A stretch of DNA of 64,000 bases from Eubacteriales bacterium (GTDB taxonomy: Bacteria > Bacillota > Clostridia > Oscillospirales > CAG-272): the NCBI GenBank assembly GCA_045612865.1, contig JAZKZW010000082.1, positions 5,135-69,134 on the forward strand, in the 5' to 3' direction. This document shows, one piece after another, positions 24,949 through 25,761 of the stretch. Under the pieces are notes generated by a model. The model saw nothing but the letters and a program-made list of their open reading frames with translations. It did not search any database and was not told the origin of the DNA. Position numbers and translations under genes: made by a program. Each line of letters opens with the position of its first letter. Position 1 is the first letter of the stretch.

Positions 24949-25761
24949 TTAAGCATTTTTTTCAATCCTCCACTATTCTTTAGAAATATTAAACTTGTCA
25001 TCCTCCAACAAGGTTTCTTTATTTACAATCCCCAATAAAAAATAAGGAACTCGTTTTAAAATAATATTATGATTAAGACAATATTCATTTTTAAGTTTGT
25101 CATAGTATATGATTTCATCTAGTGAATGGGTCTAGGTCCATGTTGCTTCTGGTCCAGTGTAGTGTTGCCTTCCATCAAATTCAATAAGAAGACTTAGCTA
25201 ATTATTTTGAAAAATTGCAAAATCAAATCGTAATTTTTTTCCTTTGCTTCCGACAAGATCTTCGAATGAATATTCTTTTATATATTGAATATCATTTTCT
25301 TTTAAAATAGTCTCGATTATATCTTCTCCTTTAGACTATAAACATCCACAAGAACTTTTCCAACCATTTTGTAGCATATTATTTTTAACTTCGATTGGTT
25401 CGCTTCCACAATCACATTGACATAATGACCATCGTTCATTTCTATCTCGACTGGCCTATTTTCTCATACCCAAGTCCTAAATAACAATTAATTTTCCATA
25501 TCTATTCCCTATTTTAACAGATGAATTATTGGCATTTCTTATCGCCAATTCTTCTGCTCGTAAGCATCCGCATGACTTACTCTAACCTGATACTAACTAA
25601 GATGCCGTTTTATAACGTAAAGTATGTTTTTCACACTGACATTCACATAAATGCTTCTTTTGTGGTTTTGAAGCTTTAGAGTTTGGATCATAGACATCGG
25701 GTTCTATCACTATCCACCGACCAAACTAATCGCCTTTTTTAATTTCAATTTTTGCTCCCAT
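24949..25761 (-). CDS. CxC zinc-finger + Vsr/EDxHD-like putative homing endonuclease; nine in-frame TAG codons, TAA stop
   Basis: 271-codon frame from ATG 25761 (AGGAGGA RBS) has TAG x9 but no TAA/TGA; paralog of 35176..35934 and 59671..60598 (CQCDCG, IEFDGRQHY, RVPYF). Confidence 0.55.

Follow-up and report, generated by a model that had tools for sequence, protein, structure and literature searches.

The 64,000-nucleotide (nt) stretch analyzed here (contig JAZKZW010000082.1, positions 5,135 to 69,134; hereafter the window) contains on its minus strand an 813-bp frame that is interrupted by nine TAG codons when read in the standard genetic code. In our assessment this frame is very probably an intact, free-standing homing endonuclease gene of a large phage with reassigned TAG, in which every TAG is read as glutamine (Gln) by a phage-encoded transfer RNA (tRNA). 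A preliminary description, made from the letters alone, had already proposed a functional, recoded gene at this place; the amino acid (Gln), the decoding tRNA-CUA, the identity of the product as a homing endonuclease and six more TAG-bearing genes in the window go beyond it.

The frame runs from ATG 25761 to a terminal TAA (minus-strand bases 24951-24949) and comprises 271 codons, with TAG at codons 12, 55, 60, 95, 102, 142, 188, 210, and 263 (first bases 25728, 25599, 25584, 25479, 25458, 25338, 25200, 25134, and 24975) and with no TAA or TGA before the terminal one. Translation of the minus strand reproduced the coordinates and codon content of the preliminary description exactly. The ribosome-binding site named there, AGGAGGA, was found at 25775-25769 (-), 7 nt 5' of ATG 25761, and the claim that 24817-25819 holds no standard open reading frame (ORF) of at least 60 amino acids (aa) was borne out, the longest one found having 53 aa. 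The same description had called the pattern strongly non-random, which is correct for one part of it. In mononucleotide shuffles (810 nt, n = 100,000) the mean count of TAA plus TGA was 18.3 and none of the 100,000 shuffles reached zero, the count observed; the other five frames of 24949-25761 hold 10-31 of these codons. The number of TAGs itself, on the other hand, is not unusual for unconstrained sequence (shuffle mean 6.2; P for nine or more = 0.17). Since the TAG count is ordinary and TAA and TGA are wholly absent, the signal lies in the exclusion of TAA and TGA, with TAG not selected against at all. TAG makes up 56% of the Gln codons of the gene, which has a GC content of 31.5% vs. 38.5% for the window.

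A protein search with the endonuclease retrieved 355 homologs, many of them full length. As the "Q" of database homologs is partly TAG-encoded (genes called with an alternative code), codons were compared at the DNA level and homologs from phages with non-TAG codes were used. At least six contigs of related phages (L015, L016, and L020-L023) have a full-length ortholog (258-278 aa) at the corresponding locus, with its TAGs placed differently. The orthologs of L015 (89% aa identity) and L016 (80%) carry six and four TAGs, respectively, and no in-frame TAA or TGA; among the orthologs the sole exception is found in the TGA-recoded contig L019, where TGA replaces TGG. With TAG read as Gln, the comparison with L015 gave a synonymous divergence (dS) of 1.35, a nonsynonymous divergence (dN) of 0.074 and a dN/dS of 0.055, and the proportions of synonymous and nonsynonymous differences (pS/pN) for three ortholog pairs were 0.63/0.07 (this same pair), 0.79/0.13, and 0.83/0.14. 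Synonymous sites are thus near saturation although the two proteins are 89% identical, and the gene is under strong purifying selection.

A decaying pseudogene with accumulated C-to-T nonsense mutations would account for the nine premature stops and the shortness of all standard-code ORFs in the region. It would not account for a frame with zero TAA, TGA, frameshifts or indels, in which every catalytic-type and cysteine (Cys) residue is intact. Frameshifts and indels in related genomes, named in the preliminary description as the mark of a dead gene, were looked for, and the opposite was seen in the full-length orthologs at the same locus. The low dN/dS, the intact orthologs and the exchange of TAG with Gln codons together rule out a pseudogene, to which we assign a very small probability, and the earlier proposal of a functional recoded gene holds. 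We are highly confident, on sequence grounds, that this is a functional endonuclease gene that would be translated with TAG as Gln through a phage tRNA.

The identity of the amino acid follows from how TAG behaves in alignments. Orthologs differ in where their TAGs lie, and TAG alternates with CAA and CAG: in the 12 alignment columns with TAG in any of three orthologs, CAA or CAG accounts for 12 of the remaining 18 codons. TAG also occurs at invariant Gln positions (102, 199, and the motif YIGQS). The column of TAG-102 holds Q in 47/47 aligned homologs, including P0065 from the standard-code contig L017 and P0090 from the TGA-recoded L019, whose non-TAG codes preclude TAG as the source of the Q. 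In L016, L010, and L002, TAG encodes the invariant glutamine of the DGxQH motif, and it likewise encodes the canonical Q of the GIY-YIG signature YIGQS in the window gene 54449..55258 and in one gene of L002.

The candidate decoder is a tRNA with the amber-suppressor anticodon CUA, which lies 2.4 kb downstream of the endonuclease gene on the same strand and scores 46.4 bits against the Rfam tRNA model. Its isotype was judged by local alignment, as blastn against E. coli genomes and against phages returned no match, the 76-nt query being too short for these databases. It is nearest to the window's own tRNA-Gln(UUG) (76%), followed by Trp (68%), and has Gln-type acceptor-end features (G2-C71, G3-C70, G10, A72, and G73) with an encoded CCA, a canonical cloverleaf, GG in the D-loop and GGTTCGAATCC in the T-arm, so that it would presumably be charged with Gln. 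The E. coli supE (glnV) amber suppressor tRNA-Gln(CUA) is similar in combining a tRNA-Gln body with a CUA anticodon, whereas the window tRNA is phage-encoded and has a 1-72 A·A mismatch instead of U-A; it is 79% identical to the sequence of E. coli tRNA-Gln2. ARAGORN labels the window tRNA as tRNA-Pyl, a call that reflects the anticodon alone. True tRNA-Pyl has an atypical architecture, lacking G18G19 and TΨC and having a short variable loop, and is accompanied by pyl genes; this identity was rejected given the canonical cloverleaf, the closeness to tRNA-Gln and the lack of pyl genes among the annotated ORFs.

A CUA tRNA also occupies the syntenic position in L002 (12586..12684 (+)). Its 99 nt include G73 and a long variable arm of 7 bp, and ARAGORN miscalls its anticodon as "taaa". 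The two CUA tRNAs differ in body, which may reflect either separate origins or strong divergence. Ser-type tRNAs characteristically have G73 and a long variable arm, and a reading in which TAG stands for another amino acid (pyrrolysine, Ser, Trp or Tyr), or is read through without a dedicated tRNA, could draw on this tRNA, on the ARAGORN label and on the K, N, S or P found instead of Q in homologs at several TAG columns. Nevertheless, TAG exchanges mainly with CAA and CAG and sits on invariant Gln positions, and the window tRNA is closest to tRNA-Gln, carries G18G19 and TΨC-loop sequences and has no pyl genes beside it among the annotated window ORFs; decoding other than as Gln is hence highly improbable.

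The encoded protein has two N-terminal Cys-rich repeats (CxCxC...CGC) followed by a C-terminal domain that is predicted to be a Vsr-like/EDxHD-type nuclease. A tblastn search matched 450 phage records, mostly from phages of Staphylococcus, Streptococcus, Enterococcus, Bacillus, and Lactococcus, including the "intron encoded nuclease" of phage Twort and genes annotated as "HNH endonuclease". Profile and sequence searches were less informative: Pfam gave nothing significant for the protein with TAG translated as either X or Q, including no NUMOD or helix-turn-helix (HTH) match, and weak DUF2726/DUF5889 matches for its paralogs; neither phmmer nor a profile of 56 homologs, both run against PDB sequences (all of them in the case of the profile), recovered a relevant match; and megablast of positions 22000-27000 found no match among GenBank phages. 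An AlphaFold model was made of the 89%-identical ortholog P0001, standing for the target (predicted local distance difference test score, pLDDT, 88). It consists of two β-hairpin repeats with five invariant Cys each (C39/41/43/64/66 and C114/116/118/138/140), followed by an α/β domain in which fold comparison, the only route that identified the nuclease domain, recognized a Vsr-like catalytic fold. The invariant residues E146, D180, H200, and D221 (plus E194, D196, and Q199) match the EDxHD motif in their order.

That motif defines the family of I-Bth0305I, whose catalytic residues are E170/D196/H213/D222 (Taylor et al. 2011, PMC3239194). The window protein differs from this family in the spacing of the catalytic residues, in having Cys-rich CxCxC...CGC repeats in place of the NUMOD2/HTH N-terminal motifs, and in lacking a sequence-level match to it. 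We therefore suggest, from the model, that the protein may work like a Vsr-like/EDxHD homing endonuclease while sharing only part of what characterizes the family.

The endonuclease gene lies between a metallophosphoesterase gene and a conserved 148-aa gene (Table 1). L002, the closest relative (RNA ligase 78% identical), is syntenic over the sigma factor, RNA ligase, polynucleotide kinase, phosphoesterase, 148-aa gene, RNase H, tRNA(CUA) and topoisomerase, and has no endonuclease at this site: its 148-aa gene follows the phosphoesterase directly, with about 150 nt in place of the 1-kb segment of the window. In L015, L016, and L020-L023 the endonuclease immediately follows the phosphoesterase gene. 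Both flanking genes in the window are complete, the phosphoesterase ending with its own TGA at 25820, and Rfam detected no intron family at gathering score anywhere in the window. On the basis of presence and absence at a fixed site, complete flanks, the lack of an Rfam intron and AT-richness, the gene behaves, as far as sequence can tell, like a homing endonuclease gene that is free-standing and homes to one fixed site.

Location within an intein or a self-splicing group I intron was weighed as well, because intron-encoded nucleases of Staphylococcus phage Twort are among the nearest annotated homologs and another, GIY-YIG-type endonuclease gene of L002 sits in a 1.1-kb insertion that splits a topoisomerase gene. 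This placement is very unlikely for the window gene in view of the phosphoesterase TGA at 25820, the downstream gene with its own Shine-Dalgarno (SD) sequence and ATG, the absence of Rfam intron families at gathering score in the window, and the two separate genes found at the junction in the endonuclease-free L002. The L002 insertion itself, which interrupts the gene for the large topoisomerase II subunit (14262..17172 (+)) and contains the GIY-YIG gene 15686..16498 with TAG at the YIG-Q-S glutamine, is likely to be an intron or intein-like element, and is absent from the topoisomerase gene of the window.

T4-like phages carry free-standing homing endonucleases, the seg and mob genes, in the standard code. 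The window gene resembles them in lying between genes behind a promoter-like leader of its own, in its presence/absence polymorphism among close relatives and in its fixed site beside a conserved gene, but belongs to another nuclease family. The AT-rich leader directly upstream of the SD sequence may have a promoter-like function. Scanning the surroundings of the gene for sigma-70 promoters and terminators gave results no better than those for shuffled sequence. Near-identical 27-nt AT-rich leaders (TTTTNATATATAA..AAAGAAAAT) stand directly 5' of three nuclease genes, namely the LAGLIDADG gene (19446..19472), the endonuclease described here (25776..25802), and the HNH gene 49842..50480 (50498..50524), all on the minus strand. 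A search with a fixed-spacing leader pattern gave three sites, where 0.04 would be expected by chance. Two are the leaders of the LAGLIDADG and HNH genes, with 0 mismatches each, and the third is an unrelated plus-strand site (25848..25874) with 3 mismatches. The copy at the endonuclease described here has a spacing one base shorter and was found only with a looser pattern. Possibly the leader is a shared, perhaps late, promoter carried by nuclease cassettes. The small hydrophobic ORF that overlaps the endonuclease stop has a similar 37-aa counterpart 3' of the ortholog in L023 (4724..4837) and none after that in L016.

The window is almost entirely minus-strand coded and phage-like. It encodes RecJ, a primase, a DnaB helicase, an AAA_24 ATPase, an NAD-dependent DNA ligase, two topoisomerase II subunits, RNase H, a phosphoesterase, a polynucleotide kinase, an RNA ligase, a sigma factor, and about 26 tRNAs, a gene set that identifies it as the part of a large phage genome devoted to replication and nucleotide metabolism. 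When TAG was read as sense, all larger "non-coding" gaps were closed and seven TAG-bearing genes were revealed, comprising the endonuclease and six others (Table 1), one of which, 11070..12227, has an architecture atypical for a homing endonuclease. These seven contain 26 TAGs in 2,071 codons, compared with at most two or three in the 14,473 codons of the other ORFs (Fisher p about 7e-21). TAG terminates none of the 72 non-nuclease ORFs (TAA 50, TGA 22), and the seven TAG-bearing genes likewise end in TAA or TGA. Their Gln codons, counting TAG, number CAA 86, CAG 7, and TAG 26, vs. CAA 284, CAG 175, and TAG 0 in the core genes, and they are AT-rich (31-33% GC vs. 38.5%). The replication genes of the window are TAG-free. 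For two of them, RecJ and the AAA_24 ATPase, the start probably lies 5' of the standard-code start (2365..2419 (-) and 8345..8411 (-)), the candidates being TTG 2419 after GGGGGAGGTG and ATG 8411 after GAGGTGG; these starts would put one TAG near each N-terminus (RecJ codon 18, AAA_24 codon 13), the sole TAGs in core replication genes. The supposition that all endonuclease-type genes of the window carry TAG was rejected, as three TAG-free nuclease genes were found: HNH (49842..50480), HNH_3 (30124..30732), and PDDEXK_5 (44404..44847).

Table 1. Features of the endonuclease locus, the CUA tRNA and the other TAG-bearing genes of the window
Feature	Position	Strand	Remarks
Predicted free-standing homing endonuclease, coding sequence, 270 aa	24949..25761	(-)	nine TAG (read as Gln), TAA stop
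Shine-Dalgarno AGGAGGA	25769..25775	(-)	read directly from sequence
AT-rich leader/promoter-like motif TTTTTCATATATAATATCAAAGAAAAT	25776..25802	(-)	conserved in L015/L016 loci
Hydrophobic small ORF, 38 aa	24840..24956	(-)	own GGAGGA; ATG overlaps endonuclease stop (ATGCTTAA)
Upstream neighbor, metallophosphoesterase (phrog_547)	25820..26353	(-)	conserved gene always beside this endonuclease subfamily
Downstream neighbor, conserved 148-aa gene of unknown function	24370..24816	(-)	own SD and ATG
Phage tRNA, anticodon CUA (amber suppressor)	22444..22519	(-)	Gln-like; ARAGORN, Rfam, local alignment
Paralog, same endonuclease family	35176..35934	(-)	1 TAG (WNC-TAG-CDCG; Q there in paralogs)
Paralog, three Cys-rich repeats	59671..60600	(+)	5 TAGs
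GIY-YIG homing endonuclease	54449..55258	(-)	4 TAGs, incl. canonical Q of YIG-Q-S
GIY-YIG + NUMOD3 homing endonuclease	57764..58594	(-)	2 TAGs
LAGLIDADG endonuclease between topoisomerase II subunit genes	18491..19423	(-)	1 TAG
GIY-YIG-domain protein, transmembrane + coiled-coil N-terminal part	11070..12227	(-)	4 TAGs, all within N-terminal 139 codons

Related contigs in other codes show the same family under different stop codon usage. L019 (ena:ERZ27291637:k119_706535) is TGA-recoded (stops TAA 25, TAG 14, TGA 0; 27.7% GC), and in its orthologous endonuclease and a GIY-YIG gene (10001..10786 and 8567..9367) every Trp is TGA (4 TGA/0 TGG and 3/0), vs. 0 TGA/5 TGG in its RNA ligase and 0/9 in its phosphoesterase. 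In L017, a standard-code relative, the ortholog has no in-frame stop at all. In L022 a 603-aa lysin with CHAP, PG_binding, and SH3 domains (8024..9835 (+)) contains seven in-frame TAGs besides CAA 11 and CAG 1, which indicates that late genes of the clade are recoded too; tail-fibre-like ORFs with TAGs also occur in relatives (among L022, L003, and L007).

We propose that a large, tRNA-rich phage reassigned TAG from stop to Gln, and that the endonuclease gene was inserted between the metallophosphoesterase gene and the conserved 148-aa gene, its nine TAGs being decoded by the phage tRNA-Gln(CUA). As nine TAGs require this tRNA, the full-length enzyme would be made only once the tRNA is present, and this dependence may delay or limit endonuclease synthesis to a later, recoded phase, as in the model of Borges et al. 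(bioRxiv 10.1101/2021.08.26.457843). The enzyme would cut endonuclease-free genomes near the junction of the phosphoesterase and 148-aa genes and could spread by recombinational repair in co-infections.

Several observations weigh against this proposal or parts of it. The TAG count is so near the unconstrained expectation that the data do not require a regulatory role, and the three TAG-free nuclease genes show that TAG loading is not universal in such genes. The suppressor tRNA shares its strand and its early-type region with the endonuclease gene, so any delay would have to come from tRNA accumulation or from competition with release factor 1. As this phage has its late genes outside the window, genome-wide use of code 15 (TAG as Gln) is deduced from L022, L003, and L007. 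The long variable arm and G73 also make the charging identity of the L002 suppressor less clear.

TAG could be Gln in a functional gene and still serve no regulatory purpose, if AT-biased mutation converted CAG to TAG by drift: early genes would avoid TAG, being translated before the suppressor acts, and a selfish endonuclease is not needed early. The count of nine TAGs vs. a shuffle expectation of 6.2 (P = 0.17), the near replacement of CAG in the seven TAG-bearing genes (7, with CAA 86 and TAG 26; core CAG 175), the low GC content of these genes (31-33% vs. 38.5%), the different TAG positions in orthologs and the three TAG-free nuclease genes all agree with it. On the opposite side, the bias recurs with TGA in L019 (endonuclease 4/0 and GIY-YIG 3/0 vs. 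RNA ligase 0/5 and phosphoesterase 0/9), and a statistically preferential recoding of an intron endonuclease was reported by Borges et al.; neither point excludes drift, to which we give slightly less than an even chance. Whether the TAG load is an adaptive device for timing or containment or a neutral by-product is, in our judgment, roughly a toss-up. A broader proposition, that recoding is a general "code lock" on selfish nucleases, with homing endonuclease genes of several unrelated families in TAG- and TGA-recoded relatives being selectively enriched in the recoded stop, we hold only tentatively and consider rather doubtful.

Gut phages with recoded stops, in which suppressor tRNAs switch the code during infection, have been described by Borges et al. 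(bioRxiv 10.1101/2021.08.26.457843), who found replication genes in the standard code and structural and lysis genes recoded. In their TGA-recoded Agate phages, the endonuclease of a group I intron that interrupts an early gene was among the most strongly recoded families, and recoding was argued to prevent endonuclease production until late. The window gene is similar in being a homing endonuclease in the early/replication region of a recoded phage, far richer in the recoded stop than its neighbors, and in the proposed absence of the endonuclease until the code switch. It differs in using TAG (Gln) instead of TGA (Trp), in being free-standing instead of intron-encoded, and in that seven genes of three or four nuclease families are affected within one 64-kb window. 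The relatives examined here (contigs of about 86-123 kb in standard, TGA, and TAG codes) resemble the Agate clade by description only; the window holds no terminase gene. Code 15 crAss-like and Lak phages (Borges et al.; Peters et al. 2022, PMC9523058) share with the window TAG as Gln, a CUA suppressor tRNA, the dropping of TAG as terminator, and probably standard-code replication genes alongside recoded late or lysis genes (the latter seen here in relatives, as in the lysin of L022). They differ in gene content, which in the window is Firmicutes-phage-like (Staphylococcus, Enterococcus, Lactococcus, and Bacillus homologs; AGGAGG ribosome-binding sites), and the recoded genes of the window are selfish nucleases. 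Phage recoding and its concentration in selfish genes have thus been described before, and the locus is the TAG/Gln, free-standing counterpart of the Agate case.

Other features of the window were recorded as well. The tRNA cluster is bordered by a full-length ROOL RNA (42702..43321 (-); Rfam RF03087, 161.6 bits, model positions 1-574). A tRNA-like gene at 52677..52751 (-) has an 8-nt anticodon loop, a four-base anticodon "agtt" in ARAGORN and no encoded CCA, and an extra tRNA detected by Rfam only (47186..47257 (-), 43.8 bits) falls within a 1.25-kb ORF-free stretch (46.5-47.8 kb). An 822-aa protein with major-vault-protein shoulder and repeat domains (30767..33235 (-)) and a 510-aa Band_7/flotillin protein (39756..41288 (-)) form a pair that recurs in L017.

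In practice, standard gene callers miss the endonuclease and at least six other genes of the window, leaving "non-coding" gaps of 0.5-1 kb, and annotation of this phage needs TAG as Gln. The locus is a clean and unusually dense case of a selfish DNA-cutting gene that depends on a phage suppressor tRNA amid standard-code replication genes, and whether members of this endonuclease family contain TAG, TGA or neither depends on the code of the resident phage. The locus reveals no new kind of system; it lends support to, and broadens, the published view that phages use recoding to gate late or dangerous functions. If the code lock proved true, the endonucleases would be silent until the suppressor tRNA accumulates and non-functional after homing into a standard-code or differently recoded phage, and the genetic code would act both as a timing switch and as a barrier to their spread between phage lineages.

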